Shown piece by piece: positions 2,638 through 17,342 of a stretch of 24,000 nucleotides of DNA (position 1 is the stretch's first letter; the number at the start of each line of letters is the position of its first letter). The translations under genes were made by a program, and so were the position numbers. Under the pieces are notes generated by a model that was not told where the DNA came from, did no database searches, and saw only the letters and a list, made by a program, of their open reading frames with translations. Source of the stretch: Halopseudomonas nanhaiensis (GTDB lineage Bacteria > Pseudomonadota > Gammaproteobacteria > Pseudomonadales > Pseudomonadaceae); contig NZ_CP073751.1 of assembly GCF_020025155.1 (NCBI RefSeq), forward strand, positions 2,521,167 through 2,545,166. Direction: 5' to 3'.

Positions 2638-3645
2638 TCAGACCCGCGAGCGGCGGGGCCTCCGGATGGGCAACCCAAGCAGTCTGTGCCACCCGGTCGA
2701 CGGCCCCTCGGCTGGAGCGGCATCCAGCCATTCGGCGACGGACGCGGCCCTTTTGCTCGGATCAGGACAGGTGGCTGCCTCGATCAGTGCCTGACTGCGT
2801 GGATCGGGTACATCGATGCGCCAGTCACCCAGCAACGGTCGATGGATATCCGCGCTGCACAGTTGATAGAGAATCACGCCCAGCGAGTAGATATCGCTGC
2901 GGGCATCGCCGGGATACCCGCGATACAGTTCCGGGGCGCGGTAGGGGTTGATCGCGTACGCCGGCGCCGGGGGGGCTGTGTCGCGCGGCCGACGCGCCAG
3001 CAGAAGCAGGCGCCCATCGGCGAAGAAATTGACGTTGACGCCCGAGATGCCGGTGTAGCCCAGACCCTCCTCATGGCGTTTGGCGACGGACGCGGCAAAC
3101 TGACGAAAGGCCTCCAGTCGCTTCGGCAAGGGGACGTCGATGAGCGATCGGGAAAGGGCTTCCGACGCCGGCCGGGAGGTCGCGTCGGCTGGCTCGTCGG
3201 TCGACGCAGCGCGGATGCGCAGCGGCAATACATCCAGCGTCGTCAGGCTGCTGTCTGGTGCCATCCGGGTCGCCCGGTCGACTACTGCCCCCTCCGCCGA
3301 GCCGACGCCATCGAAGCGTACCGGACCGTTCAGTCGGTAACCCACTCCCGCAATGGTGACGATCAGCTTGGCATCGCGCCCAAGCGCCTTGCGTAGCTTG
3401 GTCATGGCATTGGGCAGTACGTTGCGGACCGTGATGCGGCCATCCCACACCACCTGCAGCAGTTCCTCATGGGGCACCACGCGGTCAGCATTCTGCAGCA
3501 GAACGTGCAGTAGGCGAAGCGGACGCCGCTCAAGCGTTACTGTCTCGCCCAGCACTGACAGTTGCAGCGTTTCCGGACAGAACTCGGCGCAACCAAAATG
3601 GTAACGGGGCGGTACGCGGCGGGGCGAAGGCAGTGACGCTGGCAT
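2638..3645 (-). CDS. Winged-helix (OmpR/PhoB/CadC-type) DNA-binding protein fused to a degenerate Ser/Thr protein kinase C-lobe (pseudokinase-like)
   Basis: The N-terminus (YHFGCAEFCPETLQLSVLGETVTLERRPLRLLHVLLQNADRVVPHEELLQVVWDGR...VLPNAMTKLRKALG...IVTIAGVGYRL) is a Trans_reg_C-type wHTH. The C-terminus (YRAPELYRGYPGDARSDIYSLGVILYQL...DPSKRAASVAEWLDA) matches Hanks kinase subdomains VIII-XI. No Gly-rich loop or VAIK lysine is present, and the HRD position reads YTG. The ORF is open to 3672; ATG 3645 has a better GGGAAG Shine-Dalgarno-like sequence. Confidence 0.7.
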   Translation of the reverse strand: MPASLPSPRRVPPRYHFGCAEFCPETLQLSVLGETVTLERRPLRLLHVLLQNADRVVPHEELLQVVWDGRITVRNVLPNAMTKLRKALGRDAKLIVTIAGVGYRLNGPVRFDGVGSAEGAVVDRATRMAPDSSLTTLDVLPLRIRAASTDEPADATSRPASEALSRSLIDVPLPKRLEAFRQFAASVAKRHEEGLGYTGISGVNVNFFADGRLLLLARRPRDTAPPAPAYAINPYRAPELYRGYPGDARSDIYSLGVILYQLCSADIHRPLLGDWRIDVPDPRSQALIEAATCPDPSKRAASVAEWLDAAPAEGPSTGWHRLLGLPIRRPRRSRV

Positions 3646-3871
3646 GGGGTGACTTCCCTGTTTGACCGACATTTTCAGTCCATTTGAAGCTTCGTCATCT
3701 CAAACTGCCAGTAGTTCGGACTGTTTGCTTTGCTGGCGACGAACGGCATGCTTGCGTTAGCCATCCGTTAGATCTGCGGGGCAACGATATGTCTCACGTT
3801 AGGGTCAGAGTGGCAGCCAGGCGAACCCTCGCGAGAGTCGCCTGAAGGACCACCATAACAAGGAGCGAAAC
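3646..3871. promoter_or_regulatory. Divergent intergenic region between the wHTH regulator and the ATP-grasp/flippase operon
   Basis: About 226 bp of non-coding sequence separates two divergently oriented genes. AAGGAG lies 7 nt upstream of ATG 3872. No specific promoter or operator could be assigned by eye. Confidence 0.35.
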
Positions 3872-4885
3872 ATGGCACTGAAAAGCCTTGTCCACGGCCA
3901 GCAGGAAGCTCAGCCCCTCCTCCCGCCGGCGGTCGATCTGATCGATGATTTGCGCGAGACCGCACTGTACCAGTGGCAGTACTTCCGGATTCACCGCCGG
4001 TTCTGCAATTTCGACAACCCCCGCGCCTTCTCGGAAAAGATCTTTCATCGCATGCGTTACCCGAGACCGGAGTTCTCGCGGCTGGCCGACAAGGTGCTGG
4101 TACGCGATTACATCCGTGACGTGGTTGGCGATCAGTACAATGTTCCGCTGTACGCTGTGGTTGACGAGGTGCGACCGGAGCACTTTGCCATGCTTCCCGA
4201 TTCCTTCGTCATCAAGGCCAATCACAGTTGCGGCGCCCTGCGGATCATCAACGACAAGTCCTGCTGCGACGTGGTCGAACTGTCGAAAGCTGCCAATGAA
4301 TGGCTGAAGGTGGACTTCTCCGAGTACAACCATGAGAAGCACTATCACGATATTCGCCCGCGCGTGCTGTTCGAGAAAGCGCTGCTGATCAGCGGCAAGC
4401 CCGCGCCCGACTACAAGATCCACGTCTTCAATGATGCCAACGGTCGAAGCTTCAGCTTTCTCCAGGTGATTGATGGCCGTTTCGGTGATACTACGCAAAA
4501 CCTGTATTCCGTGGACTGGCTGGTTATGCCGTTCCGTATCGGCGGTCGGCTGCCGGGCAGTCTGGACCCGCAGATCATCGAGCCGCCCGCCGAACTCCCG
4601 GAAATGGTCAGGCTGGCCAAGCGCCTCGCGCGCCCGTTCGGCTACTGCCGCGTCGACATGTACCTGTTCGAAGGCCAGATTCATGTGGGCGAGCTTACCT
4701 TCACCCCGGGCGCAGGCGAATGCCGGTTCTTGCCTGAACAGTGGGACTGGACGCTGGGATCACTCTTCAGGTGGCCCGAACCGCCCCGGCCCGTGCCGGT
4801 CATGGACCCCCAGACTGCGCCGGTGTCGGTAGCTGCTGAACAACACGACGACTGGGGCGATCTCGACGCGGCGCGGCTGGCATGA
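3872..4885 (+). CDS. TupA-like ATP-grasp fold amidoligase family protein
   Basis: End-to-end resemblance to the ATPgrasp_TupA family as I remember it: FDNPRAFSEKIFHRM, LADKVLVRDYI, DSFVIKANHSCG, PDYKIHVFN, CRVDMYLFEGQIHVGELTFTPGAG and PEQWDWTLGSLF. Strong RBS. The antisense 296-aa ORF (3794..4684) is a shadow. Confidence 0.85.
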   Translation: MALKSLVHGQQEAQPLLPPAVDLIDDLRETALYQWQYFRIHRRFCNFDNPRAFSEKIFHRMRYPRPEFSRLADKVLVRDYIRDVVGDQYNVPLYAVVDEVRPEHFAMLPDSFVIKANHSCGALRIINDKSCCDVVELSKAANEWLKVDFSEYNHEKHYHDIRPRVLFEKALLISGKPAPDYKIHVFNDANGRSFSFLQVIDGRFGDTTQNLYSVDWLVMPFRIGGRLPGSLDPQIIEPPAELPEMVRLAKRLARPFGYCRVDMYLFEGQIHVGELTFTPGAGECRFLPEQWDWTLGSLFRWPEPPRPVPVMDPQTAPVSVAAEQHDDWGDLDAARLA

Positions 4886-6177
4886 TTGGCACCGCCGTCA
4901 TGCGCAATTCGCTGACGCACCTGAGCGGTCGCTCGCTGCGCCATGTCGCGGTTCTTGCTGGTGGAACCGCCACCGCGCAAATACTGACTCTGGCCGCAAC
5001 GCCGCTGATCACCCGAATGTTCGGGCCCGAGGCCTACGGCGCTGCCGGCAGCTTCCTCGCGCTGGTCTCCATGCTGGTGCCGGTGGCGGCGCTCTGTTAC
5101 CCGCTGGCGATCGTACTGCCGCGAGAGGATCGTGATGCGCAGGGGCTGAGCGTGCTTTCGCTGACCATTGCACTGGTCCTTGCTCTGTTGACACTCGCCT
5201 GCGTGTGGGTCGGCCAGCCTCTGCTCGAACGCACCGGAATGACGGCATCGTGGCTGCTCCTGCTGCCGGTATTCATGCTACTCGGGGCACTGCGCCAGGT
5301 ACTCGAGCAATGGGCTCATCGCCTTGGGCGCTTTCCCGTCTCCGCGCGCGTCTCGGTGGCTCAGTCCGTAACGGCCAATGGCGGAAAGATCGGCGGCGGT
5401 CTGGCGTTTCCTGTCGCGGGGACGCTGGTCGGCATGGCGCTGCTTGCAGAGGTGGTGGCGTGCGCGTGGTATCTCGCATCGCTGCGCCGGGTCGTCGTCG
5501 AAGCCTTCCAGCGCAGGCATGAGTCGACCACGGCTCTGCGCCAACTCGCCGCGACCCACTTCGATTTCCCGGTGTACCGCGCGCCGCAGATTCTGGTCAG
5601 CAGTCTCTCACTGGGTTTGCCCGTCCTGATACTCGGAACCTGGTTCGGCGCTGCTGCTGCAGGATTCTATGTCCTCGCCCGCGTGGTGGTAACGGCTCCG
5701 GTTACCTTGATCGGCAAGGCCATTACCGACGTGCTGACTCCTCGCCTAGCGGAGGCTTCACGCCGCGGAGAAGCGTTACGACCCCTGCTCCGCAAGGCCA
5801 TGCTGGGTCTCGCACCCACCGCCGCGTTACCGATGCTCTCGGTCATCATCGCGGGGCCGATACTGTTCGAATGGCTGTTCGGTGCCGAGTGGCGCCCGGC
5901 TGGCGAACAGGCCCGCTGGCTGGCGCTATGGTTCTACGTGACATTGATCACCATGCCCTGTCTCGCCGCCCTTCCAGTCCTGCGGATGCAGCGCTTCCAC
6001 CTGCAGCTCACCTGCTGGAGTGCGGCGGTACGCTTGTCGCTGCTGCTCGGGTGCGCCGCCCTCGGCGCCGATGTCATTACCTGCGTTGCCGTCTACGCCA
6101 TCTCAGGTGCGCTCATCAATCTGCTGCTGGCCGCCAGGGTGCTGCCGGCTTCGTCCGCCCCGGTCGCACGCGACTGA
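4882..6177 (+). CDS. Wzx-like oligosaccharide/polysaccharide flippase (MOP superfamily, Polysacc_synt-type)
   Basis: 431-aa polytopic membrane protein. The N-terminal region GGTATAQILTLAATPLITRMFGPEAYG matches the conserved PxLTRxxxPexFG signature of Wzx/RfbX-like lipopolysaccharide biosynthesis proteins. Its ATG overlaps the upstream stop (ATGA at 4882-4885), implying translational coupling. Confidence 0.75.
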   Translation: MIGTAVMRNSLTHLSGRSLRHVAVLAGGTATAQILTLAATPLITRMFGPEAYGAAGSFLALVSMLVPVAALCYPLAIVLPREDRDAQGLSVLSLTIALVLALLTLACVWVGQPLLERTGMTASWLLLLPVFMLLGALRQVLEQWAHRLGRFPVSARVSVAQSVTANGGKIGGGLAFPVAGTLVGMALLAEVVACAWYLASLRRVVVEAFQRRHESTTALRQLAATHFDFPVYRAPQILVSSLSLGLPVLILGTWFGAAAAGFYVLARVVVTAPVTLIGKAITDVLTPRLAEASRRGEALRPLLRKAMLGLAPTAALPMLSVIIAGPILFEWLFGAEWRPAGEQARWLALWFYVTLITMPCLAALPVLRMQRFHLQLTCWSAAVRLSLLLGCAALGADVITCVAVYAISGALINLLLAARVLPASSAPVARD

Positions 6178-6280: not shown

Positions 6281-7516
<1,236 letters not shown>

Positions 7517-7529
7517 TCGCTGATATGAA

Positions 7530-7561
7530 CCAAGCCGCCGGCGCGATGGCCGGCGGCTTGG
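7530..7561. terminator. Bidirectional rho-independent-type terminator between the convergent porin and csgA genes
   Basis: Perfect 13-bp GC-rich stem CCAAGCCGCCGGC (7530-7542) / GCCGGCGGCTTGG (7549-7561) with a 6-nt loop. It is flanked by TTATTG on the plus strand and TTCATATC on the minus strand. It lies 14 nt after the porin stop and 10 nt after the csgA stop. Confidence 0.75.
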
Positions 7562-7571
7562 TTATTGCTGC

Positions 7572-8792
7572 TTACTGAGTGATGGACGCAACGTTCGCCG
7601 TTCCGGTCTGGGTCATCAGCGCCTCGTTGTAGTTGCCTGACTGACCAACTACCCCGACGTTGCGGGAGCCGCTCTGGTAGATGTCCGCCAGGTTGTCGCT
7701 GCCCCACTGGGTCGCTGTAGCCACGTTACGATCGCCGTACTGTTCAACGGCGGCGATGTTGTCCGAGCCCCACTGTCCGGTAGTGGCCTTGTTGGCAAAA
7801 CCGTCCTGGAAGATGGTGGCGTCGTTGCCGCTCTCAAGCTGCTCGGCAGTAGCGACGTTGAATTCACCAGTCTGCTCGATATCGACGGTGCCGTTATCAC
7901 CAAACTGGCTGGAGCGCGCCCAGTTGCCAGTGCCGGTCTGGTCGATCGAAGAATCGTTATCGTGGTCGCCCTGTGCGCTATACGCAATGTTCACACCGCC
8001 AGCCTGATCGATTTTCGAATCATTATCAGAACCCGACTGCGATGCGTCAGCGTAGTTGCCGCCGCCCACCTGATCGATATTGACGATACCGTCGGTCCCT
8101 GATTGCGATGAGGACGCGATATTGGTCACGCCGTCCTGCTCGATTTCCGCCAGGTTGCGGGAGTCGGTCTGGACCGCGCGCGCCTGGTTAAGCGTGCCGT
8201 CCTGATCAATCGTTGCAGTGCTGTGCGAGCCCGACTGATAGGTTGTGGCATCGTTACCCTGGCCTTTCTGATAAATGTTGGCTCTGCTGCTTTCGGTGTT
8301 CACCTGCTCGGCCAGCGCGTCGTTGTACCAGCCTTCCTGTTCCACCAGAACCTTGTTGTTCCAGCCGGACTGGTCGATTACAGCGTCGTTGTAATAGTCA
8401 TGCTGCACGACCACCGCATCGTTGTTCCATTTGGTCTGCCGGACCTTCAGATCATTGCCCAGGCCACGCTGCTCGACGTCGATATCGTGCCAGTCTCCGA
8501 TACTGGAGGTGTCGACCGAGTTGCCGCGGCCGGTCTGCAGCGAGTCCAGGGTATTACCCTTGCCTTCCTGATAGGCGTCGAGCTCCTGGCCACGACCGAA
8601 CTGGTCGACGTTGACCCGGTTGAGTTCACCTTCCTGAACGGTGCTGGAGTACTGATGCGCACCGGCCTGATAGATAGTCGCCTGCTGCTCGTCGCCTTCC
8701 TGAATAACGTAAGCCTCACTGTTGTTCGCGGCATGAGCCTGAGCGACACCAAGTGCAAGCAGAGCGGCAACCAGCGGTTTGATCTTGAACAT
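7572..8792 (-). CDS. csgA: Major curlin subunit CsgA homologue, greatly expanded (406 aa, about 17 curlin repeats)
   Basis: Signal peptide MFKIKPLVAALLALGVAQAHA. The rest is built of x-G-x-x-N-x-A-x-x-x-Q units (e.g. SGSRNVGVVGQ SGNYNEALMTQ TGTANVASITQ), the curlin repeat signature. It lies directly downstream of csgB in a csgDEFG-csgBA locus. Start chosen at ATG 8792 (AGGAGA 6 nt upstream); the ORF is open to 8822. Confidence 0.9.
   Translation of the reverse strand: MFKIKPLVAALLALGVAQAHAANNSEAYVIQEGDEQQATIYQAGAHQYSSTVQEGELNRVNVDQFGRGQELDAYQEGKGNTLDSLQTGRGNSVDTSSIGDWHDIDVEQRGLGNDLKVRQTKWNNDAVVVQHDYYNDAVIDQSGWNNKVLVEQEGWYNDALAEQVNTESSRANIYQKGQGNDATTYQSGSHSTATIDQDGTLNQARAVQTDSRNLAEIEQDGVTNIASSSQSGTDGIVNIDQVGGGNYADASQSGSDNDSKIDQAGGVNIAYSAQGDHDNDSSIDQTGTGNWARSSQFGDNGTVDIEQTGEFNVATAEQLESGNDATIFQDGFANKATTGQWGSDNIAAVEQYGDRNVATATQWGSDNLADIYQSGSRNVGVVGQSGNYNEALMTQTGTANVASITQ
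7575..8699 (-). repeat. In-frame tandem array of 34 curlin half-repeats (33-nt / 11-codon period) inside csgA
   Basis: Hand parse: residues 32-406 (375 aa) tile without gaps into 34 consecutive units, 33 of 11 aa and one of 12 aa, each ending in Q (one ends in S). The repeats are degenerate at nucleotide level. The clearest near-duplication is QWGSDNIAAVEQYGDRNVATATQWGSDNLADIYQ (about 66-nt period, around 7680-7800). Confidence 0.85.
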
Positions 8793-8836
8793 GTTGTTTC
8801 TCCTGATGAATCCTGGAATCAATAAGGAAGTGCACG

Positions 8837-9304
8837 TTAGCGATATTGGCGAACCAATATGTTTACAAGCTGGCCGGACTGCGCAATGGATGCACTTTTA
8901 TCCGATCCAGTCTGTTCGATAAGGGCATTGTTGAACGCCCCCTGTTGCTTGATCAGCGCTTCATTGTTCGAGCCCGACTGCAGGATGGCGGCCTCGTGAC
9001 CAAAGCCGTCCTGATCGATCAAGGCGGAATTGAGATAACCTGTTTGCAGAATGACAGCCTCAAGTTCTGCGCCCGTCTGCGCAATATGGGCGTCGAGCAA
9101 GTTACCGGACTGATGTATCGTGGCGAAGCTGTTTTCCGCGCCAGCGCCGCGTGACCCTGGAGCATTCAAGTCGGTTGACAACATCAACTCCGATGGAGCC
9201 AGATCGGCTGAGCCCTGAGCTTTGACAGGCGGCACAAAAAAGGTAAATAAAGTTGCCACCAGGCAAAAAAGAAGCGGCGCAAGCGAAGGTGTTGAGTAAT
9301 TCAT
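8837..9304 (-). CDS. csgB: Minor curlin subunit / nucleator CsgB homologue
   Basis: 155 aa with an N-terminal hydrophobic signal (LAPLLFCLVATLFTFFVPPVKA), followed by about 9 curlin half-repeats (SGNLLDAHIAQ TGAELEAVILQ TGYLNSALIDQ DGFGHEAAILQ SGSNNEALIKQ QGAFNNALIEQ TGSDKSASIAQ SGQLVNILVRQ). Basic C-terminal end (VRQYR). Position immediately 5' of csgA. Confidence 0.85.
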   Translation of the reverse strand: MNYSTPSLAPLLFCLVATLFTFFVPPVKAQGSADLAPSELMLSTDLNAPGSRGAGAENSFATIHQSGNLLDAHIAQTGAELEAVILQTGYLNSALIDQDGFGHEAAILQSGSNNEALIKQQGAFNNALIEQTGSDKSASIAQSGQLVNILVRQYR

Positions 9305-9414
9305 CTGCAGCGACTCGGCATTGAACGTCTTGATTCAATGGTCGATCAAAAGCGTCGCAAGGAACATCAATCAAAGGATTGAAAAATCATCTGAATAGGC
9401 GTTTTGTTTGGAAT
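9305..9414 (-). promoter_or_regulatory. Putative csgBA promoter/operator region (AT-rich, several TTGA/TCAA palindromes)
   Basis: About 110 bp of AT-rich non-coding sequence lies between the csgG terminator and the csgB ATG. Palindromes seen: TCAATC-AAAG-GATTGA at 9367-9382, ATTGAA-N8-TTCAAT at 9320-9339, and the near-palindrome TTGATTCAA at 9330-9338. No -10/-35 could be assigned confidently. Confidence 0.4.
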
Positions 9415-9436
9415 AAAAAAGCCGCTGTTAAGCGGC
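9415..9436 (-). terminator. Rho-independent terminator after csgG
   Basis: On the minus strand: GCCGCT-TAAC-AGCGGC followed by TTTTTT (plus-strand A-run 9415-9420, stem 9421-9436). It starts about 22 nt downstream of the csgG stop. Confidence 0.75.
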
Positions 9437-9458
9437 TTTGCTGAATGCCATTCCTTGA

Positions 9459-10253
9459 CTACTGGGCGGCGGCGACCTGCCAGAGCCGCCGCTCCACACC
9501 CTGATTGATCAGATGCGCAACAGCTGCTTCAATCGCAGAGAGTACGCACAGCTGCGCCGGCTCGTTGGTCGTGTAGCCCGCTTCGGCTTCGAGCAGTTCC
9601 TTGAACTCAATGAACTTGTATACGTTGGCACTGCGCCCGATCGAGTAGATGGTCTTGGTCGTCATCACGTTCGAGAGTACCTGTCCGCTACGCACATCCA
9701 CGGCACGCAGATTGACCGTCACCTGATCGACCCGGTACTCCTGAGACACTCCGATGCCGAGATAGCGCGCGCCCAATCCGCCGCTACGCACGTTCGTTTC
9801 ATACGCGACGATGGCACCTTCGAGGATGATGTTCGCCGCCAGCAGCGAGGGTAGATCTTCCTGAATGTTGGGCGCCACATCCGGCTTGTTCTGCGATGCG
9901 CGAATGATCTTCCGTTCGGTCAGAACGTTCTGCAGGCCCTCCCGTTCCAGCACCACGAACCAGCCGCTGGCCTGGAGCGCATCGACCAGCATGCTGCCTG
10001 CGCCCTGCGTGACCGCCGTGGAGAAGGAGCTTGCAGGGTTGGGTTTGTACTGCCCGGTCTGGTCACGAAAGCCGTAGACTGCGGCCACCAGCTTGCCCTT
10101 TGGACGCGGCAGGTCCAGCAGGTCCTGGTACGTCGAAGCACGCGGTGTCAGGGTCGGGCCTTTCTGCTCGGCCGGCATGGGTTCGCGGACGGCGCAGCCC
10201 TGAAGCAGCGCGACCAGACCCAGGGCAATCATCATCTTGTTCATGTTCAGCAT
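9459..10253 (-). CDS. csgG: Curli secretion channel lipoprotein CsgG
   Basis: Lipobox LLQGC. Strong colinear similarity to E. coli CsgG: PTLTPRASTYQDLLDLPRPKGK, VAAVYGFRDQTGQYKP.PAS.FSTAV.QGA..ML..AL, LEREGLQNVLTERKIIRA, GGLGARYLGIG, VNLR.V.V.SG..LS, GYT.NEP..LC..SAIE. The start could be one of several ATGs within the first 8 codons. Confidence 0.95.
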   Translation of the reverse strand: MLNMNKMMIALGLVALLQGCAVREPMPAEQKGPTLTPRASTYQDLLDLPRPKGKLVAAVYGFRDQTGQYKPNPASSFSTAVTQGAGSMLVDALQASGWFVVLEREGLQNVLTERKIIRASQNKPDVAPNIQEDLPSLLAANIILEGAIVAYETNVRSGGLGARYLGIGVSQEYRVDQVTVNLRAVDVRSGQVLSNVMTTKTIYSIGRSANVYKFIEFKELLEAEAGYTTNEPAQLCVLSAIEAAVAHLINQGVERRLWQVAAAQ

Positions 10254-10260
10254 CCTGTGC

Positions 10261-10680
10261 TCAGTTGATTGCGCCGTATCCGGTGACGCTTATTTCCGAA
10301 ACTTCACCGGTCAGCCTGTCGGTGATTTCGATGGTCAGATTCCCCGAGTCGTTGACGATATTGACGATGAAATCATCGGTTGTGAGCGAGCCGGTGTTGG
10401 TTTCCCCCAGGTCGCCAAGCAGATCGGACAGCAGCCGGGCTTCGAGCTGAGAAGTGAAGCGATCCAGCGCCGACTGCCCCGTGAGGGCCGAACGGTCGAT
10501 GGCGTCCGGGTCCTTGGTATCGTTCTGCGCCTGCGCGCTGCCCAGAAGCCAGGCACCATTGAGCGGGCTGCCGCCAAACGACGGATTGACCGGGGTATAC
10601 ACCAGCTCGGTCGCGGCAAGGGCGCCGCTGAACAGCGCACCCACTGCCATTGAGCACATACAGCTAACTCGGCTTTTCAT
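10261..10680 (-). CDS. csgF: Curli assembly component CsgF
   Basis: Signal peptide, then VNPSFGGSPLNGAWLLGSAQAQN..KDP (E. coli CsgF: [28 protein letters not shown]) and SALDRFTSQLEARLLSDLL...DDFIVNIVNDSGNLTIEITDRLTGE. The start overlaps the csgE stop (ATGA). Confidence 0.9.
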   Translation of the reverse strand: MKSRVSCMCSMAVGALFSGALAATELVYTPVNPSFGGSPLNGAWLLGSAQAQNDTKDPDAIDRSALTGQSALDRFTSQLEARLLSDLLGDLGETNTGSLTTDDFIVNIVNDSGNLTIEITDRLTGEVSEISVTGYGAIN

Positions 10681-11057
10681 AGCTCATCCTTGTCCAGGTC
10701 GATGTTGTCTTCGAACAGCGCTTCGATCTTGCGCCGATTGATCTCCTGCAGGACCAGGTCGGCCGCGCGATACGCCGTCTCGTCCAGCTGCGAGGAATTG
10801 GGTGACAGGAACTCGCGATAGACCGGCTGCCCTTCCAGCTCAACCCACAGCAATACGCCCCAGCGTGCCGACGGGCGCTCCTTGACCACCAGATTGGTTT
10901 CCAGCGGCACCAGCTCGTTGAGCCGCTCGCTGAATTTGCGATAGAAGTCGTTTCCGGAGCGGGTAATCGTGTGGTTGATCACCAGCCCGTTGATCTCTGC
11001 TTCGTCCGCCCAGGCCGCAGGCGCGAGCAGGAACCAGAGCAGGACCCAGCGCCTCAT
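10677..11057 (-). CDS. csgE: Curli secretion specificity factor CsgE
   Basis: MRRWVLLWFLLAPAAWA signal. Then INGLVINHTITRSGNDFYRKFSERL and VVKERPSARWGVLLWVEL (E. coli CsgE: [22 protein letters not shown] ... INERPSARWGSWITI). Start ATG 11057-11055 overlaps the csgD stop 11056-11054 (ATGA). The listed ORF extension to 11273 runs out of frame through csgD and is not credible. Confidence 0.9.
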   Translation of the reverse strand: MRRWVLLWFLLAPAAWADEAEINGLVINHTITRSGNDFYRKFSERLNELVPLETNLVVKERPSARWGVLLWVELEGQPVYREFLSPNSSQLDETAYRAADLVLQEINRRKIEALFEDNIDLDKDEL

Positions 11058-11707
11058 GCTTCCGTACCGTCGACGTGACGCAGAACCATCGAGGCCGCCT
11101 GAGCGCGGTTTGTCGCACCCAGTTTGTACAGCGCGTTGTGAACGTGACTCTTGACCGTATGGATGCTCAGGTTTATCTGGTCGGCAATGTCTACATTCGA
11201 GAGACCGTTGCCAGCCAGCCGGAGAATCTGCTTCTCCCGTTGGGTCAGCGATGAAAGCTTGTCGCTTGCACAAGCAAACAATCGATAACGTGCGATCAAT
11301 TTTTCCATCAATGCACGCGGCAGCCAGTCCCCGTCGGCCAACAGTATCTGTATGCCCGAGCGAAAGTTCTCACGCGACGTATTCTTGTAGAACACGCCTT
11401 TGATCCATGGAAAGTTTTGCAGTGCACTCAACGCCAATTCGGGAGTGGCATTGAAAAGTGCGACGGGCCTGTTTGGCGTGCTTTTCAAAAGGTCGAAACA
11501 CGCCAGTTCGGACAAACTACCGGCATCGATCAGCAGCAGTTTGAAGGAAGCGTCGACACTTGCGACGCTCGCGCACCGAACTAACCTCAACGACGCGTCG
11601 TCCGGAATCTGATGTTGCAGAAACGTTACGGATATATCGCTGTTGGTGGAGATCAGAACTAGCGCAGGTGTAACCAGCTGCGAGCTGGCCGAATTATTAT
11701 TCGACAT
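11054..11707 (-). CDS. csgD: CsgD-like LuxR/FixJ-family transcriptional regulator (atypical receiver + HTH)
   Basis: Colinear with E. coli CsgD: FKLLLIDAG (vs IILLDMME), LQNFPWIKGVFYKNTS (vs IENWPHINGVFYSMED), LTQREKQILRLAGNGLSNVDIADQINLSIHTVKSHVHNALYKLGATNRAQA (LuxR-type HTH). It is the first gene of the csgDEFG unit and noticeably more AT-rich than neighbouring genes. Confidence 0.85.
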   Translation of the reverse strand: MSNNNSASSQLVTPALVLISTNSDISVTFLQHQIPDDASLRLVRCASVASVDASFKLLLIDAGSLSELACFDLLKSTPNRPVALFNATPELALSALQNFPWIKGVFYKNTSRENFRSGIQILLADGDWLPRALMEKLIARYRLFACASDKLSSLTQREKQILRLAGNGLSNVDIADQINLSIHTVKSHVHNALYKLGATNRAQAASMVLRHVDGTEA

Positions 11708-12026
11708 GACAGATCCCTGTAGTCGGATTCATTCCCTAGACCGGAAGCGTCAATATTCCGGATGAAAATCAAGCTAGCCACGAAAGCTGACAAAATAAAG
11801 TCACGCCTTCATCAGGGCGCGCGCTTCCCGACGAAAGGTATATGCAGCGCCATACAGGATTTTCAAATGCAGCATTAAGTTGTTGAAAAGCAATACGTTG
11901 CAAAGCGGATAGGGGAATTGCGCCAGAAACCGGACTTTCGACACCGGCTACCGGACCAGGAAGTTGCGCATACTCACAATTGATGATGGCGCAGCAGGTC
12001 ACGCGCTGCCACGCCAATTTCACATG
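11708..12026 (-). promoter_or_regulatory. csgD upstream non-coding region (319 bp, AT-rich for this genome)
   Basis: No credible ORF (see rejected 11769..12023). Contains the inverted repeat CCGGAA-N9-TTCCGG at 11741-11761, with a TTGACG hexamer on the minus strand inside it, 35-55 bp upstream of the csgD ATG, plus several A/T tracts. Its length is consistent with the heavily regulated csgD promoters known from enterics. Exact promoter not assignable. Confidence 0.4.
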
Positions 12027-12866
12027 TTACGGAGCCTCGAGAACAGCTGCACAGGCTTGAGGAAGCGTGCGATTCGGACTGGGTTCAAGTGCGGTACGCG
12101 GAGTGGGCGCCAGGTTGTCGCAGCCCTCGCCCGGAGGAGGCTCTGGCTGATCGACACAGGCGTGGGAGCCCGGCGGACACTTGAGACGCACGTGCAGATG
12201 CTCGTCATGCGCGGCCCAGGGTCGGATCCGCCGCAGCCAGGCGCGGTCCTCCCAGTCCCGTTCGCAAAGATCTCGCTTGATTGCTGCATCGACGAAGATG
12301 CGCGAAACGCGCGCATCGTCGGCCGCCATTCTGATCATCTGGGCGTGGGTATCGGTCCACAACTGGCGGTCGATTTCGCCCGTCTCGGCGTCGACCACGA
12401 TCGGCTGTTCCAGGTTCTCGCGTTCACTGCGGTCGAGTTGCGGGAGATCCAGCCGAAACCACACGTCGACATCGAGACCGCTTTGATGGCTGACGTGCCC
12501 GTAGGACATCGGTCCCCCGCGGGGCTGTGCCATGTCGCCGATGAGCATGATGCCCAGCCCTGCCGCATCGAAGCGCTCTCCCAGGGTCTGTACGTAGTCC
12601 AACAGCTCCGGATGGCCAAAGTGACGGCGCCGCTCCAGATCCACGGCCTGATAGCCTGGCCCTTCAGACGGAAGCTCCATGGCTCCGATCAGACAGGCGC
12701 CGCCATGATGGCCGATGATCTGCGGCTCGCCCGGCAGAGGTCCTGGCACGCTCGACCAGTCCTGGTCAGCAGGAGCCCGCTGCGGCCAGGCCATCAGCAG
12801 TAGCGCCAGCGTACATAGCGAGAGTACCGCCAGGGCGGCTCGAATCGGGTTCACTCGGTATCGCAC
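12027..12866 (-). CDS. mepA: Penicillin-insensitive murein endopeptidase MepA
   Basis: MSYGHVSHQSGLDVDVWF (H-x-SHQSGLDVD zinc site), DEHLHVRLKCP and a Cys-rich C-terminus are MepA hallmarks. N-terminal signal-like AALAVLSLCTLALLLMA. Start placed at GTG 12866 (GAGGAG 7 nt upstream, 279 aa versus 274 aa in E. coli). The listed ATG 12908 would overlap the upstream gene by 28 nt. Confidence 0.85.
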   Translation of the reverse strand: MRYRVNPIRAALAVLSLCTLALLLMAWPQRAPADQDWSSVPGPLPGEPQIIGHHGGACLIGAMELPSEGPGYQAVDLERRRHFGHPELLDYVQTLGERFDAAGLGIMLIGDMAQPRGGPMSYGHVSHQSGLDVDVWFRLDLPQLDRSERENLEQPIVVDAETGEIDRQLWTDTHAQMIRMAADDARVSRIFVDAAIKRDLCERDWEDRAWLRRIRPWAAHDEHLHVRLKCPPGSHACVDQPEPPPGEGCDNLAPTPRTALEPSPNRTLPQACAAVLEAP

Positions 12867-12880
12867 GATGGATCTCCTCG

Positions 12881-13951
12881 TTAGTCGCGGCGCTGACGCG
12901 CCAGCCATTCCAGCCCCGGTCGGTAGAGCATGTCGTGCTCGCCCTCGAACAGGACCAGCTCGACCGGGCCGGATTTCATATGCAACAACACATCGGCTTC
13001 AGCCGATTCAAACCCGACCAGGTCGCCGTCGTTGACATGACGCGAGCGCAGGGCGTCGGGTACCTCACGCGTGGAGCGCAACTGTTCGTAAGCCGCGGCA
13101 TCGACGCCCTCGCCCTGCTTCGCCAGATCGTTGAATGCGCGCAGGGCATAGTCCGGTGGCACGGTCTCGTCGTCGATGCCGTGGGCGATGAGGATCGGCA
13201 GCTTGCCCGCCACCTCGGACATGTAGGTGCTGGGGCTACGCTTCCGGCACTCCTGACGCGCCGTATCGTTCTCGAGGGGGTTTCCGCCGCACGCGCCTTC
13301 GATCTCGCCGGCATACTTTTCACCGCGACTGGCGTTCCATTCGTACCAGTCAACCAGATCGTAGACCGGCACCCAGATCGCGGTACCGGCGAACACGTCC
13401 GGATTCATTCTGGCCAGATGAAGCGCATTCATCGCACCACCGGAGTACCCCAGCAGATAGATACGCGAGGGATCTACATTGGCGTTGTCCCGTGCATACT
13501 GCAGCGCGTCATGCATGTCCGAGAGGACCATTTCTGACGCCGTCGTGTCAGGATCACCGGTGTTTGCGCCGCGAAAGTCCGGATGCATGAATACCCAGTC
13601 GTTGGCACGGGCGAACTCGGCCAGCGGAATGTCGATGTTCTGCAGATAGCCGGTACTCCAGCTGTGAAGTACCAGCAGCAGCGGCTTGTCGCGATCGGAG
13701 CCGGAGTCGTAGAACAGCGCCTTCTGGTGGGCCCCGTCTGCGGATGACGGGATTTCGATATCCTCGACCTCCTCCACCGCTTCGCGCCAGCTTTCCCGAT
13801 CCGCGCCGACGAATCCCCCGGGGTAATTGGTGACACGCAGATAGTCGCTGGGGTGTTGGAGCGCGGCACTGTCCTGCGCCACCGCGCAGGCGCCGGACAG
13901 CATCAGTGCGAGCAGCCAGATCGGCCTGTGGAAAACGCTGAACCGTCTCAT
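12881..13951 (-). CDS. Secreted alpha/beta hydrolase (S9 prolyl-oligopeptidase/esterase-like)
   Basis: Signal peptide MRRFSVFHRPIWLLALMLSGACAVAQ. Nucleophile elbow LLGYSGGAMNAL (G-x-S-x-G), PILIAHGIDDETVPP (acid) and FEGEHDM (His) give a Ser-Asp-His triad in canonical order. Start at ATG 13951 (GGAG 7 nt upstream); the ORF is open to 14104, but that extension lacks any signal or RBS logic. Confidence 0.75.
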   Translation of the reverse strand: MRRFSVFHRPIWLLALMLSGACAVAQDSAALQHPSDYLRVTNYPGGFVGADRESWREAVEEVEDIEIPSSADGAHQKALFYDSGSDRDKPLLLVLHSWSTGYLQNIDIPLAEFARANDWVFMHPDFRGANTGDPDTTASEMVLSDMHDALQYARDNANVDPSRIYLLGYSGGAMNALHLARMNPDVFAGTAIWVPVYDLVDWYEWNASRGEKYAGEIEGACGGNPLENDTARQECRKRSPSTYMSEVAGKLPILIAHGIDDETVPPDYALRAFNDLAKQGEGVDAAAYEQLRSTREVPDALRSRHVNDGDLVGFESAEADVLLHMKSGPVELVLFEGEHDMLYRPGLEWLARQRRD

Positions 13952-14155
13952 GAGCAGTCTCCGAGCCAAGCGTTCCCTGCTGCGTTGACACCTGGCGACC
14001 CGAGCCAGGCCATTAATGCTGCGACTGCCACAGCGTTCCGCGGTTCCGTGGAAGTCATCCCCATCGACATTCATCCGGTAAATGGCGATTGTTGCCCGGC
14101 GCACAGCGTGCCAACGTAATCAGCACTTGCCACGCCATTCAGAAGAGGACTACCC

Positions 14156-15301
14156 ATGAACGACATGCAAACCCGACAGGGACTGGAACTGCGCTCCCTG
14201 ATCACCTCGCAGGGACAATTGGAACTGTCGCTGACCGAGGTCGACGTCCCTGCGCCGCGCCCTGATCAGGTGGTTATCGAAATCCAGGCGACCCCCATCA
14301 ACCCCTCCGACCTTGGCCTGCTCACCGGCCCGGCAGACCTCTCCACCGCGCAATTCGGCGGCTCCGAAGCAAGGCCGACGGTGACGGCAGAGGTACCAAA
14401 GGACAGGCTGGCCGGCCTCCAGGCACGGATCGACCAGTCGATGCCGGTCGGCAACGAAGGTGCAGGCGTGGTGATCGCAGCGGGTGACAACGCACAGCAC
14501 ATGCTGGGCAAGACCGTAGCCGTACTCGGCGGATCCATGTATGCGCAGTACCGGGTCATCCGCGCATCCGAGTGCCTGGAATTGCCCGAGGGGACCGCTC
14601 CGGCCGACGGCGCGTCCTGCTTCGTCAACCCGATGACCGCGCTGAGCATGGTCGAGAACATGCGGCTGGATGGGCATACGGCGCTGGTGCATACCGCTGC
14701 GGCCTCCAACCTCGGTCAGATGCTCAACCGTATCTGTCTTGCCGACGGCATCGGGCTGGTGAACATTGTTCGCAGCCAGGAACAGGCCGCCATCCTGCGC
14801 GAGATTGGCGCCCAGCACATTTGCGACAGCACTAGCCCCGGGTTCGAGGCTGAACTCGCCGACGCCGTTCACGCAACCGGTGCCACGCTGGGATTCGATG
14901 CGATCGGCGGTGGCGAGCTGCCGTCGCAGATTCTTGCCGCCATGGAGGTCGCCGCCAACCGTAGCGCTACCGCCTACAGCCGCTATGGCTCGGCTACGCA
15001 CAAGCAGGTCTACCTGTATGGCAACCTGGACACCAGCCCTACCGTATTGAACCGTACCTTCGGCATGGCCTGGGGTGTCGGCGGCTGGCTGCTGACCAGC
15101 TTCCTGCAGCGCGCCGGTGGCGAGGCTGCGCAGAGAATGAAGCAGCGTATCGCAGCCGAGCTGCAGACGACCTTCAAAAGCCATTACACCGCCGAGATCA
15201 GTCTTGCCGAAGCGCTGCGCGAAAATACCTTGCGCGCCTATACACGGCGCGCCACCGGGGAGAAGTATCTGATCAACCCCGCGCGAGGCTTGTCTGACTG
15301 A
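14156..15301 (+). CDS. Medium-chain dehydrogenase/reductase family oxidoreductase (quinone oxidoreductase / zinc-binding ADH-like)
   Basis: VVIEIQATPINPSDL, MPVGNEGAGVVIAAG and the nucleotide-binding-like LVHTAAASNLGQML are typical of the MDR enoyl/quinone reductase branch. The 426-aa antisense ORF (14150..15430) is a GC shadow. Confidence 0.8.
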   Translation: MNDMQTRQGLELRSLITSQGQLELSLTEVDVPAPRPDQVVIEIQATPINPSDLGLLTGPADLSTAQFGGSEARPTVTAEVPKDRLAGLQARIDQSMPVGNEGAGVVIAAGDNAQHMLGKTVAVLGGSMYAQYRVIRASECLELPEGTAPADGASCFVNPMTALSMVENMRLDGHTALVHTAAASNLGQMLNRICLADGIGLVNIVRSQEQAAILREIGAQHICDSTSPGFEAELADAVHATGATLGFDAIGGGELPSQILAAMEVAANRSATAYSRYGSATHKQVYLYGNLDTSPTVLNRTFGMAWGVGGWLLTSFLQRAGGEAAQRMKQRIAAELQTTFKSHYTAEISLAEALRENTLRAYTRRATGEKYLINPARGLSD

Positions 15302-15395
15302 ACAGGGAGCGGCATCCTGCGTCAAGCGGTGACGTCTGCTCGCCTGTGCGGTCACAGCAGCAATCCGCTGCAACACGAGCAAAGCGAGACAACCC

Positions 15396-17342
15396 TTGAC
15401 GCAGAGTTTCACCCACCGGCCGTTGCCCACGCTGCTGAGCGGCCCCCTACTACGCCGCCTGGCGCCGGACCGCCTGCTGATCTGGCTGGTCAGCTCCCGG
15501 CCCCTGGAGCTGACGCTCTGGTTGCAGCCCGCCGGCGAAGCGGCTCAGTCCATTTCCTGTACCGGCAAGAGCTGTCGCAGCCTTGCAGTGGGCCAGTCGG
15601 CGTTCGTGCAGTTGCTGGACATAACCCCCGCGTCCCGATTACCCGTCGACACGCTGATCGAGTATGACCTGACCTGGGTCGAACATGGCACCCAGCGCAG
15701 CCTGACCGAAGCGCTGCCCTACCTCTGCCACGATGGCCGAACACGACCAGACTTCGTCATCGCCTCGCACAACCGCAGGCTGCTGCATGGCTCCTGCCGC
15801 AAACCGCATTTCGATGCGCCGGACGGGCTGGTTCGCGCGGACAGCTGGCTCCAGACGCATCACGATGACGCCGCGCAGCGACCGTCATGGTTAATCATGA
15901 GCGGTGACCAGATCTACGCTGACGACGTGGGCGGCCCCATGCTGGTGGCGATCCACCGGCTGATCGAGCGCCTCGGCCTGTTCGGCGAGACGCTTGGTGG
16001 CGCAACGGTGGCCGATAGCGAAGCGCTTTACCGCTCGGACAAGACCTATTACCGCCGCGAGGAGCTGCTGCCGGACGTGCGCTCCAACGCGGTACTGCGC
16101 GAGCGGTTCTTCGGTGGCGTGAAAAAGCCGGTTTTCACTACCGCCCACGCGCATAACCACCTCATCACCTTCGCCGAGGTGATCGCCATGTACCTGCTGG
16201 TCTGGTCGCCGGAGTGCTGGAAGCTGGTCGATGACACGCCACCGCCAGTGGATACGGATTGGCAGGAGGTGTATCGGCGCGAGCAACGCATCCTTAAGGA
16301 TTTCGTCGCCGGGCTGCCCCAGGTCGCCCGACTGGTATGCCATCTGCCAACCCTGATGATCTTCGATGACCACGACATCACCGACGACTGGAACCTGACT
16401 GCCGAATGGGAGCGCACCGCCTATGGCAACCCCTTCTCGCGGCGGATCATCGGCAACGCACTGCTGGCCTATCTGCTATGCCAGGGGTGGGGCAACGCGC
16501 CCGACGCCGTCGCAGAGCCATTGAAGGCACTGGAGGACTTGCTTGCCGTCACGGCGTCCGCCACGGGGGCCAGGCTCGACGCCGGCCGCCAGGACGATTG
16601 CATCAACCAGGCGCTCGCCTTCCATCGCTGGAGCTTCAATATCCCTGGCGACCCCGGTCTGGTGGTCCTGGACACACGCACGCGGCGATGGCGCAGCGAG
16701 GACCATCCATCGCGGCCATCTGGTCTGATGGATTGGGAGTCACTCACCGAGATGCAGCAAAGGCTGCTGGATCACAAGAGTGTGGTAATCGTTTCTCCCG
16801 CACCAATGTTCGGCGTCAAGCTGATCGAGGCGATACAACGCCTGTTCACCCTTTCAGGCAATCCCCTGCTGGTGGACGCGGAGAACTGGATGGCCCACCG
16901 GGGCGCGGCTCAGGTGATGCTCAATATCTTCCGCCACACACGCACCCCCGGGAACTACGTCATTCTTTCGGGGGACGTGCATTATTCGTTCGTCTACGAC
17001 ATACGCATTCGCCAGCGCGTCAACGGGCCACGAATCTGGCAGATCACCAGCAGCGGACTGAAAAACAGTTTTCCACGCGGCCTGCTGGACTGGTTCGACC
17101 GGCTGAACCGCTGGCTGTACTCGCCGCGTTCACCTTTGAACTGGTTGACCAAGCGCCGCGCCATGCACGTGACCCCGCGTGATCCGGACCAGGCCAGCGC
17201 GGGCGAACGCCTCTGGAACGGAAGCGGTATCGGGCTGGTTTGCCTGGACCTTGAAGGCCGACCGGAGTCGATCGTTCAGCTGGATACCAGCGGCAAGGAT
17301 GTCCTGTTTCCCCCTGCCTCGAACAAATACGACGCGGGCTGA
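15396..17342 (+). CDS. PhoD-like metallophosphatase family protein (no recognisable signal peptide)
   Basis: Metallophosphoesterase-type motifs appear in PhoD order: MSGDQIYADDVGG, MIFDDHDITDDWN, ILSGDVHYSF. The N-terminal SGPLLRRLAPDRLLIWLVSS resembles the PhoD_N beta-sandwich start. The first in-frame start is TTG at 15396, so the start is uncertain. Confidence 0.6.
   Translation: MTQSFTHRPLPTLLSGPLLRRLAPDRLLIWLVSSRPLELTLWLQPAGEAAQSISCTGKSCRSLAVGQSAFVQLLDITPASRLPVDTLIEYDLTWVEHGTQRSLTEALPYLCHDGRTRPDFVIASHNRRLLHGSCRKPHFDAPDGLVRADSWLQTHHDDAAQRPSWLIMSGDQIYADDVGGPMLVAIHRLIERLGLFGETLGGATVADSEALYRSDKTYYRREELLPDVRSNAVLRERFFGGVKKPVFTTAHAHNHLITFAEVIAMYLLVWSPECWKLVDDTPPPVDTDWQEVYRREQRILKDFVAGLPQVARLVCHLPTLMIFDDHDITDDWNLTAEWERTAYGNPFSRRIIGNALLAYLLCQGWGNAPDAVAEPLKALEDLLAVTASATGARLDAGRQDDCINQALAFHRWSFNIPGDPGLVVLDTRTRRWRSEDHPSRPSGLMDWESLTEMQQRLLDHKSVVIVSPAPMFGVKLIEAIQRLFTLSGNPLLVDAENWMAHRGAAQVMLNIFRHTRTPGNYVILSGDVHYSFVYDIRIRQRVNGPRIWQITSSGLKNSFPRGLLDWFDRLNRWLYSPRSPLNWLTKRRAMHVTPRDPDQASAGERLWNGSGIGLVCLDLEGRPESIVQLDTSGKDVLFPPASNKYDAG

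Follow-up and report, generated by a model that had tools for sequence, protein, structure and literature searches.

A long, acidic CsgA-type curlin in a complete curli locus of Halopseudomonas nanhaiensis and its counterparts in other pseudomonads

The 24-kb stretch of Halopseudomonas nanhaiensis DNA analysed here (hereafter the window) contains a gene for a 406-amino acid protein consisting almost entirely of curlin half-repeats, which the first-pass annotation presented as a giant and exceptional CsgA. The locus raises the question of whether this protein has been expanded specifically in this genome or whether it represents the ordinary major curli subunit of its lineage. The evidence presented below makes it very probable that the gene is csgA, that it encodes a long acidic curli subunit of the form usual for the Pseudomonas/Stutzerimonas lineage, and that the protein makes curli fibres in the manner inferred from E. 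coli.

The gene was located at positions 7572..8792 on the reverse strand, with the stop codon at 7572-7574, and was identified from the list of open reading frames, the Pfam Curlin_rpt family, the NCBIfam CsgA model and a match to the PDB entry 8c50. Curlin_rpt (PF07012) matched the protein in 9 separate stretches with a total of 186.8 bits (gathering cutoff 20.7, E=4.9e-56), which, along with the full curli locus around the gene, bore out its earlier classification as a CsgA-type curlin. The NCBIfam models for CsgA (169.9 bits, cutoff 160) and CsgB (180 bits, cutoff 165) were both passed, but since these scores sum over many repeats, the assignment to csgA rather than csgB rests on size and gene order. 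A Shine-Dalgarno sequence, AGGAG, is located 7 nt upstream of the ATG at 8792 (8800..8804, reverse strand), and the N-terminus translated from this ATG, MFKIKPLVAALL..., was common to the Stutzerimonas CsgA proteins, so that the TTG at 8822 is unnecessary as a start. Residues 1 to 21 (MFKIKPLVAALLALGVAQAHA; 8730..8792, reverse strand) read as a Sec signal peptide, with lysines at positions 3 and 5, a hydrophobic core and an A-H-A cleavage motif at residues 19 to 21. This peptide was conserved in 40+ relatives and nearly identical in the Stutzerimonas CsgAs, and the AlphaFold 2 (AF2) pLDDT was below 50 for residues 1 to 22.

The csgD-E-F-G/csgB-A locus is complete, contiguous and co-directional, with all 6 genes on the reverse strand and csgA in the last position. 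The csgB gene (8837..9304) encodes a 155-amino acid minor, or nucleator, curlin that matched Curlin_rpt with E=7e-22 and E. coli CsgB with E=2e-15 in a tblastn search; it scored 79 bits against the NCBIfam CsgB model versus 46 bits against the CsgA model, both under the cutoff. The other genes are csgG (9459..10253; Pfam CsgG, E=1.6e-79), which encodes the outer-membrane curli secretion channel, csgF (10261..10680; Pfam CsgF, E=7e-31), csgE (10677..11057; Pfam CsgE, E=1.3e-35) and a csgD-like gene for a LuxR/GerE-family regulator (11054..11707; Pfam GerE, E=1.4e-18). The best NCBIfam match of the latter was CsgD, with 87.5 bits and thus below the cutoff of 250. The csgE reading frame was taken to start at MRRWVLLW..., which gives a 4-nt overlap with the csgD stop codon, and the same 126-amino acid gene call was present on contig L082.

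A pattern scan identified a hairpin followed by a T-run in the gap between csgG and csgB (9418..9439, reverse strand), a predicted intrinsic-terminator-like element that would split csgDEFG from the csgBA transcription unit. The convergent lamB gene lies 55 nt beyond csgA, and a 15-bp GC-rich hairpin without a U tract was read from the sequence between them (7528..7563; RNA fold of -32.8 kcal/mol, z = -6.0), which is a probable bidirectional terminator. The csgD-E-F-G-B-A order is the same in the Stutzerimonas group, whereas E. coli contains divergent csgDEFG and csgBAC operons, including csgC. Dueholm et al. (2012, PMC3521004) described co-directional csgDEFG and csgBA(C) operons in Aeromonadales and Oceanospirillales, whereas for Pseudomonadales they reported divergent operons and a csgD that stands apart. 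The window and the Stutzerimonas loci differ from the latter description, in that the 2 units are co-directional and csgD is attached. The genes flanking the locus were not syntenic, and none of lamB, mepA or the polysaccharide genes was found in the 80 related loci.

The first-pass annotation also raised the lack of csgC and csgH in the locus as a puzzle. The lack of csgC was borne out within the 24-kb window, where a tblastn search with E. coli CsgC yielded no match at E<=10. In a hand-assembled gene map, no intergenic gap was seemingly large enough for a further gene, and the sole spare open reading frame (11769-12023) was without a Pfam match. However, csgC has been reported only in Enterobacteriales and Aeromonadales, and csgH has been reported in Alphaproteobacteria (Dueholm et al. 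2012, PMC3521004), so the puzzle applies to curli loci generally outside Enterobacteriales, Aeromonadales and the csgH-carrying Alphaproteobacteria, rather than to this one in particular.

Tiling of residues 32 to 406 (7575..8699, reverse strand), together with the composition at each position, recovered the 34 spacer-free half-repeats that had been counted by hand, which correspond to 17 a+b repeats of 22 amino acids, one of them of 23. The units have the form x-G-x-x-N-x-A-x-x-x-Q without gaps, and all are 11 residues long (33 units) except for unit 13 (VNTESSRANIYQ), which has 12. The description of the protein as perfectly tiled was accurate for the spacing, with 32 Q-X10-Q pairs, whereas 5000 shuffled sequences averaged 4.0 and never exceeded 11, but not for the motif. 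The final Gln was present in 33 of the 34 units, Gly at position 2 in 28, Asn at position 5 in 26 and Ala at position 7 in 21, and only 20 units matched positions 2, 5 and 11 jointly. Units 1 to 8 are degenerate, the aromatic block in units 9 to 12 and the Asp/Ser/Gly block in units 19 to 25 are as first described, and the last 6 units are canonical.

Positions 5, 7, 9 and 11 were free of Asp, Glu, Lys and Arg throughout the 34 units. Position 9 was occupied by Ile or Val in 15 of the 17 rungs in motif a and by Ala, Ser or Thr in 14 of the 17 in motif b, and this a/b alternation stayed in register across all rungs. Taken together, the 32 Q-X10-Q pairs, the exclusion of charge and the a/b alternation argue for selection on the fold. 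The lengths previously given for the signal peptide (21 residues) and the segment that follows it (10 residues, ANNSEAYVIQ) were correct, but the segment does not stand apart from the array: since it ends in S-E-A-Y-V-I-Q and residues 25 to 32 were modelled as a β-strand, it is effectively a 35th half-unit rather than a separate targeting peptide similar to the N22 segment of E. coli CsgA, which is rich in Gly and 22 residues long.

A recent repeat expansion of csgA was considered and rejected. Tandem Repeats Finder identified no tandem repeats over positions 7400-9400, and the direct DNA repeats in the csgA region were short, only 60% to 80% identical and mostly spaced by multiples of 33 nt. 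The lack of tandem repeats at the DNA level indicates that the array is old.

The AF2 model of the protein had a mean pLDDT of 86 and a pTM of 0.85, with 30 strands in a strand-arc-strand arrangement that recurs every 11 residues, which is consistent with a β-solenoid. Confidence fell at residues 88-113, which cover units 6 and 7 including the sole unit without a terminal Gln, and at residues 154-169, around the 12-residue unit, and the solenoid may be broken in these segments. A Foldseek search of the PDB with the AF2 model produced no match at E<=0.001, with 8c50 ranked second (E=0.21, TM 0.27-0.29), a result that says little, given that the query is a long repeat protein containing 2 floppy segments. 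The comparison to solved CsgA structures was decided instead by a sequence-based search of the PDB, which retrieved the 363-amino acid CsgA of Pontibacter (8c50) with E=2.7e-34 and E. coli CsgA (8enq) with E=2.3e-8.

The Pontibacter korlensis CsgA 'R15.5' (UniProt A0A0E3UX01) was shown by cryoEM to form β-solenoid curli fibres (Sleutel et al. 2023, PMC10192328). It contains 15.5 repeats, compared to about 17 in the window CsgA, and both proteins have spacer-free repeats, the N-x-psi-x-psi-x-Q / X-G-X-X half-repeat and acidic G-x-D-N-D-x-x-I-D-Q units, whereas the degenerate N-terminal third is a feature of the window CsgA. The Pontibacter protein is from Bacteroidota and belongs to the centrosymmetric class (classes according to PMC10192328). 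The window CsgA is instead more like the non-centrosymmetric class represented by E. coli, because bulky Ile/Val residues alternate with small Ala/Ser/Thr residues at position 9. E. coli CsgA (PDB 8enq/8enr) is only 151 amino acids long and has 5 repeats, but the 2 systems are alike in the curlin family, in csgB, D, E, F and G, and in the non-centrosymmetric a/b repeats.

By analogy with the E. coli system, the window CsgA would be exported by Sec and held unfolded in the periplasm, where CsgE would hand it to the CsgG/CsgF channel. At the cell surface, the 155-amino acid CsgB would nucleate CsgA, which would then fold into a β-solenoid of about 17 rungs and stack end to end into amyloid fibres, with Asn5, Ala7, Ile/Val/Ala9 and Gln11 of each half-repeat expected to face the core. 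Alternatively, the gene could encode a monomeric curlin-repeat surface protein, or be an unexpressed relic. The possible stability of a solenoid of about 17 rungs as a monomer, the degenerate units 1 to 8, the 2 segments of low AF2 confidence and a related locus (L003) that contains csgDEFG with no curlin gene within 8 kb could be taken to suggest a non-fibre role or decay. We consider this highly improbable, since the reading frame is intact with a ribosome binding site and a terminator hairpin, charge is strictly kept out of the core positions in 34 units, and the accessory gene set is complete. Furthermore, the last 6 units keep the canonical form, which would be expected of a templating end that is exposed.

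To place the protein among its homologs, we compared it to CsgA from 44 curli loci in Pseudomonas, Stutzerimonas and their allies, including one Oceanisphaera and one Paucimonas MAG, and to the 148 best matches among 1.84 billion representative proteins. The 44 clade proteins ranged from 306 to 489 amino acids, with 41 of them at 404-489 amino acids, or about 17 to 20 repeats as estimated from tilings of the Stutzerimonas/Pseudomonas CsgAs (loci L001-L080). The median length of the 148 best matches was 441 amino acids and the maximum was 1632, and 89 of them were longer than the window CsgA. CsgA repeat number is variable, while the size of CsgB is constant, and up to 22 repeats have been published in one survey (Dueholm et al. 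2012, PMC3521004) and 4 to 62 in another (Sleutel et al. 2023, PMC10192328). With these proteins, and with a long Asp-rich CsgA already solved (8c50), the designation as giant or exceptional falls away and the architecture is better described as routine. On these sequence comparisons, a long acidic CsgA is normal for the Pseudomonas/Stutzerimonas lineage, rather than the product of an expansion specific to this genome.

The acidic character, as well as the number of about 17 full repeats, was correctly annotated: the 385-amino acid mature protein contains 57 Asp and Glu versus 18 Lys and Arg (20 with the signal peptide), which puts each subunit at a net charge of about -39. The fibre surface would be strongly acidic, because all of the charge is located in the X-G-X-X arcs and at the outward positions 6, 8 and 10. 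The charge on such a surface probably serves as a gatekeeper that delays premature self-assembly, and the surface may also bind cations. The acidic stripes consist of 6 rungs in a row with Asp or Glu at motif a position 10, 4 rungs with Asp at motif b position 6, and arcs of the form D-x-D-x-D.

It could be argued from these stripes that the protein is a specialised variant, in which acidic stripes bind Ca2+ or Mg2+ and folding or fibre bundling is gated by divalent cations or ionic strength, replacing the control exerted by CsgC/CsgH. This is consistent with a net charge of -0.10 per mature residue versus -0.046 in E. coli CsgA, with acidic runs that stay in register for 6, 4 and 3 rungs, compared to at most 2-3 rungs among 17 relatives, with the lack of csgC in the 24-kb window, and with the closest named MepA relatives (Pseudomonas profundi and Billgrantia), which are marine or saline species. 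However, 22 of the 148 database matches were at least as acidic, and several relatives equalled or surpassed the window CsgA, with per-residue net charges between -0.12 and -0.13 for the CsgAs of loci L011, L014 and L024. The 44 clade proteins were all net negative, with 25-56 Asp and Glu and 2-23 Lys and Arg. In the solved Pontibacter CsgA, the G-E-D-N-D-A-D-I-D-Q units are more regular still, and Sleutel et al. (2023, PMC10192328) do not use the word "acidic" anywhere in their main text. Acidity and Asp ladders were accordingly rejected as unique traits. Since position 10 of motif a is acidic in 10 of the 17 rungs, 6 such rungs in a row are not unlikely, going by a rough estimate and not a computed test. 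We therefore regard a specialised cation-dependent variant as unlikely, and it is similarly doubtful that the strict periodicity and the 6-rung stripes make the fibre switchable by divalent cations or ionic strength. If true, it would represent a charge-gated, chaperone-independent way for long curlins to avoid periplasmic self-assembly without CsgC/CsgH.

While ordinary in length and charge, the window CsgA was divergent in sequence. Its mature part was only 28% to 35% identical to the Stutzerimonas/Pseudomonas CsgAs, and no protein with more than 45% identity was found among the 1.84 billion representatives. The CsgG protein was 87% to 89% identical to the 10 best Stutzerimonas-group matches (L001-L010), for which CsgA identity was 31% to 35%, whereas other locus pairs with 87% to 90% identity in CsgG had 46% to 53% in CsgA. 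Furthermore, the Stutzerimonas CsgAs alternate between 11 and 12 residues in the N-terminal two-thirds, whereas the window CsgA has 11+11 units throughout. These observations are those expected if csgA, and perhaps csgB, were a foreign allele that recombination had brought in from a distant lineage. However, the host is itself distant from Stutzerimonas (67% identity in MepA), and the csg genes have diverged jointly, with identities of 68% to 80% for CsgF, 62% to 66% for CsgE, 46% to 51% for CsgD and 45% to 48% for CsgB. The GC3 value of csgA (0.725) is genome-like, and the signal peptide is conserved with Stutzerimonas. CsgA was the fastest-evolving component everywhere, as in a pair with 99% identity in CsgG and 74% in CsgA, and about 30% to 35% identity is a floor set by the shared motif. 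Replacement of csgA by horizontal transfer was therefore set aside as improbable.

The mildly distinctive trait left to the window CsgA is its extreme 11-residue regularity: relatives mix units of 11, 12 and more residues, whereas here nearly all are 11/11, and the Q-X10-Q density was the highest of the 226 homologs compared. The finding matters little beyond cataloguing that Stutzerimonas and allied pseudomonads have full curli loci with a long, acidic CsgA of about 17 repeats. Fap amyloids are the better-known amyloids of pseudomonads, and our literature search on curli in Pseudomonas and P. stutzeri yielded nothing beyond papers on Fap, reviews and bioengineering work, with no experimental report of expression, secretion or amyloid formation for any pseudomonad curli protein. 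Being very regular, the window CsgA could serve as a model for the tuning of curli assembly by repeat number and by surface charge, for how premature polymerisation is avoided without CsgC/CsgH, and for the rate at which CsgA diverges relative to the secretion machinery (33% for CsgA versus 88% for CsgG in comparison to Stutzerimonas). These questions concern the clade as a whole and are not discoveries from this window.

It was also noted that exact look-ups of the CsgA, CsgB, 264-amino acid CsgG and inositol-phosphatase sequences gave no record, whereas the exact CsgF sequence and the 261-amino acid CsgG were both present on a single Logan contig of 4 kb, which shares 99.5% identity with the window and breaks off within csgB.

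The csgA gene (7572-8792, minus strand) was found to encode a protein of 406 amino acids, with an AGGAG motif located 7 nt upstream of its ATG codon at position 8792. The N-terminus, MFKIKPLVAALLALGVAQAHA, reads as a typical Sec signal. It carries an A-H-A cleavage motif and is nearly identical to the signal sequences of the Stutzerimonas CsgA proteins. The first-pass annotation had parsed the protein by hand into 34 curlin half-repeats of the form x-G-x-x-N-x-A-x-x-x-Q, and this parse was accurate: after the first 10 residues beyond the signal, residues 32-406 are tiled without spacers by 33 units of 11 aa and 1 unit of 12 aa. The final Q was conserved in 33 of the 34 units, G at position 2 in 28, N at position 5 in 26, and A at position 7 in 21. 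The mature sequence contained 32 Q-X10-Q pairs, whereas 5,000 shuffles of the same sequence averaged 4 and never exceeded 11, and the proposed check against Pfam Curlin_rpt gave a match in nine stretches (E=4.9e-56). The aromatic block in units 9-12 and the Asp/Ser/Gly block in units 19-25 were also present as described, and a recount of the mature protein returned the same 57 acidic (D+E) and 18 basic (K+R) residues.

The charged residues were confined to the X-G-X-X arc (positions 1-4) and to positions 6, 8, and 10, and D, E, K, and R were absent from positions 5, 7, 9, and 11 in all 34 units, which matches the inward/outward pattern of the curlin β-solenoid (Sleutel et al. 2023, PMC10192328). 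Position 9 was I or V in 15 of the 17 odd units and A, S, or T in 14 of the 17 even units, indicating that the true repeat is a 22-residue pair of motifs a and b that stays in register across 17 rungs. This asymmetry resembles that of E. coli CsgA, which belongs to the non-centrosymmetric class. No tandem repeats were found at the DNA level in the csgA array, which must therefore be ancient.

The genes immediately upstream of csgA, on the same strand, encode CsgB (155 aa), CsgG, CsgF, CsgE, and a CsgD-like LuxR regulator, and all five have strong Pfam or NCBIfam matches. A strong terminator-like hairpin (9418-9439, minus strand), consisting of a 9-bp stem followed by a T-run, separates csgG from csgB, so that the best reading of the locus is 2 co-directional and probably separate transcription units, csgDEFG and csgBA, with the csgBA promoter probably located in 9305-9417. 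A 15-bp GC hairpin (-32.8 kcal/mol, z = -6) was also identified between csgA and the convergent lamB gene. The GC3 values of csgB (0.58) and csgD (0.63) were clearly below those of all other measured genes in the window (0.71-0.82), including csgA, csgE, csgF, and csgG. The sole further trace that we found of the curli locus of this organism was a 4-kb Logan contig (SRR33230314_171521) that corresponds to window positions 9272-13329 with 99.5% identity and the same mepA-csgDEFG synteny, and which ends within csgB. The absence of csgC, which had been presented as a puzzle, was real in that tblastn with E. coli CsgC gave no match in the window and our hand-assembled gene map left no gap big enough for an extra gene. 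However, csgC is limited among the Gammaproteobacteria to Enterobacteriales and Aeromonadales (Dueholm et al. 2012, PMC3521004), so its absence is not a problem peculiar to this locus.

The first-pass annotation had also described the protein as giant and singled out its acidic, Asp-rich units, and neither feature proved unusual in comparison with other curlins. At least 498 relatives of CsgG were identified in reference genomes, the closest in Stutzerimonas with 87-89% identity, followed by many in Pseudomonas. The CsgA proteins extracted from 44 of the 80 related loci that we fetched were 306-489 aa long, with 41 of them in the range of 404-489 aa. All 44 were acidic (D+E 25-56 vs. K+R 2-23), and several were more so than the window protein, with net charges per residue of -0.12 to -0.13 in loci L011, L014, and L024 vs. 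-0.10. Searched exhaustively with HMMER (E<=0.001), a set of 1.84 billion representative proteins yielded 2178 curlin-repeat proteins, the best 148 of which had a median length of 441 aa and a maximum of 1632 aa, 89 of them being longer than 406 aa. Previous surveys have reported up to 22 repeat units in CsgA outside Enterobacteriales, with CsgB of constant size (Dueholm et al. 2012, PMC3521004), and repeat numbers from 4 to 62, the distribution having secondary peaks close to 15 and 22 (Sleutel et al. 2023, PMC10192328). The Pontibacter CsgA fibre of 15.5 repeats, solved by cryoEM (Sleutel et al. 2023, PMC10192328; PDB 8c50), matched the window protein in sequence with E=2.7e-34 and contains acidic units of the same kind, such as GEDNDADIDQ and DGTLNDAAIEQ. 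This architecture is thus routine among long CsgA proteins; the observation was confirmed, and its interpretation was supported in part. No experimental study of pseudomonad curli was found in the literature searched. The long, acidic curlins of pseudomonads thus appear experimentally untouched, and the window CsgA would be a reasonable model protein for long, acidic curlins.

The protein is still mildly distinctive in the regularity of its spacing. Its density of strict Q-X10-Q pairs, 0.079 per residue with a theoretical ceiling of 0.091, was the highest among 182 database matches and 44 pseudomonad CsgA proteins, the others reaching at most 0.062. By contrast, 11- and 12-residue units alternate over much of the length of the Stutzerimonas proteins. 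In-register acidic runs spanned 6, 4, and 3 rungs, as compared to a maximum of 2-3 in 17 relatives, but motif a is acidic at the position of the longest run in 10 of the 17 rungs, and by a rough estimate a run of 6 is therefore not remarkable.

No protein above 45% identity was found in the databases searched, including the 1.84 billion representatives, and identities to the CsgA proteins of loci with 87-89% identical CsgG were only 31-35%. We examined whether this discrepancy reflects replacement of the csgA allele. CsgA is everywhere the fastest-evolving curli protein, and in locus pairs whose CsgG proteins were 99%, 92%, and 81% identical, the CsgA proteins shared 74%, about 48%, and about 41% identity. 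Furthermore, the other Csg proteins of the window have diverged together (CsgF 68-80%, CsgE 62-66%, CsgD 46-51%, CsgB 45-48%), the GC3 of csgA is genome-like, and the host is remote from Stutzerimonas, the adjacent MepA being 67% identical to that of S. zhaodongensis and 71% to those of Pseudomonas profundi and Pseudomonas sp. gcc21. The simplest reading is that a fast-evolving repeat protein has diverged in the ordinary way until only the identity imposed by its motif was left. Comparison of csgG (9459-10253) with mepA (12027-12866) pointed to one of two possibilities, an unusually high conservation of CsgG or a transfer of the curli locus between these lineages. It was also noted that the S. 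zhaodongensis locus contained csgDEFG with no curlin gene detectable within 8 kb, and that in S. urumqiensis (L011) csgD-E-F-B-A was located about 3 kb from csgG, which was followed by another curlin-repeat ORF, 342 aa in length.

An AlphaFold2 model built from an alignment of 28 sequences (mean pLDDT 86, pTM 0.85) contained 30 strands with an 11-residue period. Confidence fell to 50-69 at residues 88-113 (units 6-7, including the sole unit without a terminal Q) and at residues 154-169, around the 12-residue unit, two places at which the solenoid may be interrupted. A Foldseek search of the model against the PDB gave no significant match, with 8c50 at E=0.21. The first predicted strand (residues 25-32) covers the supposed N-terminal segment, ANNSEAYVIQ (residues 22-31; 8700-8729), which bears no resemblance to N22, the Gly-rich segment that targets E. 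coli CsgA for secretion. A short A-x-N-T-S-E-Q-x-Q motif was common to the relatives at the mature N-terminus. The canonical curli pathway is the best-supported explanation, whereby CsgA would leave the cytoplasm by Sec export and be delivered by CsgE to the CsgG/CsgF channel. At the cell surface, with CsgB as nucleator, it would fold into a solenoid of about 17 rungs, and the stacked solenoids would form fibres with a strongly acidic exterior. The acidic residues that face outward plausibly serve as gatekeepers that hold back premature self-assembly, and may bind cations.

Genes related to surface polysaccharides were located around the curli locus (3872-6177, 20654-21688, and 23078-23983), of which those for a TupA-like ATP-grasp protein and a Polysacc_synt flippase lie upstream of lamB and those for a GH113 glycosidase and a family-2 glycosyltransferase lie further away. 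The ORF at 21613-23130 (minus strand, 505 aa) had no Pfam match, and a hybrid histidine kinase of 1041 aa was encoded at 17508-20633. Two overlapping ORFs, 14150-15430 (minus) and 14156-15301 (plus), had Pfam matches on the plus frame only, to zinc-type alcohol dehydrogenase, with ADH_N reaching its gathering score (27.2 vs. 23.5 bits) and ADH_zinc_N below it (28.0 vs. 31.8 bits). Finally, a 344-aa protein (2638-3672, minus strand) had at its N-terminus a winged-helix DNA-binding domain of the OmpR/CadC type (Trans_reg_C, residues 42-114) and lacked a receiver domain, which suggests a ToxR/CadC-like one-component membrane regulator.
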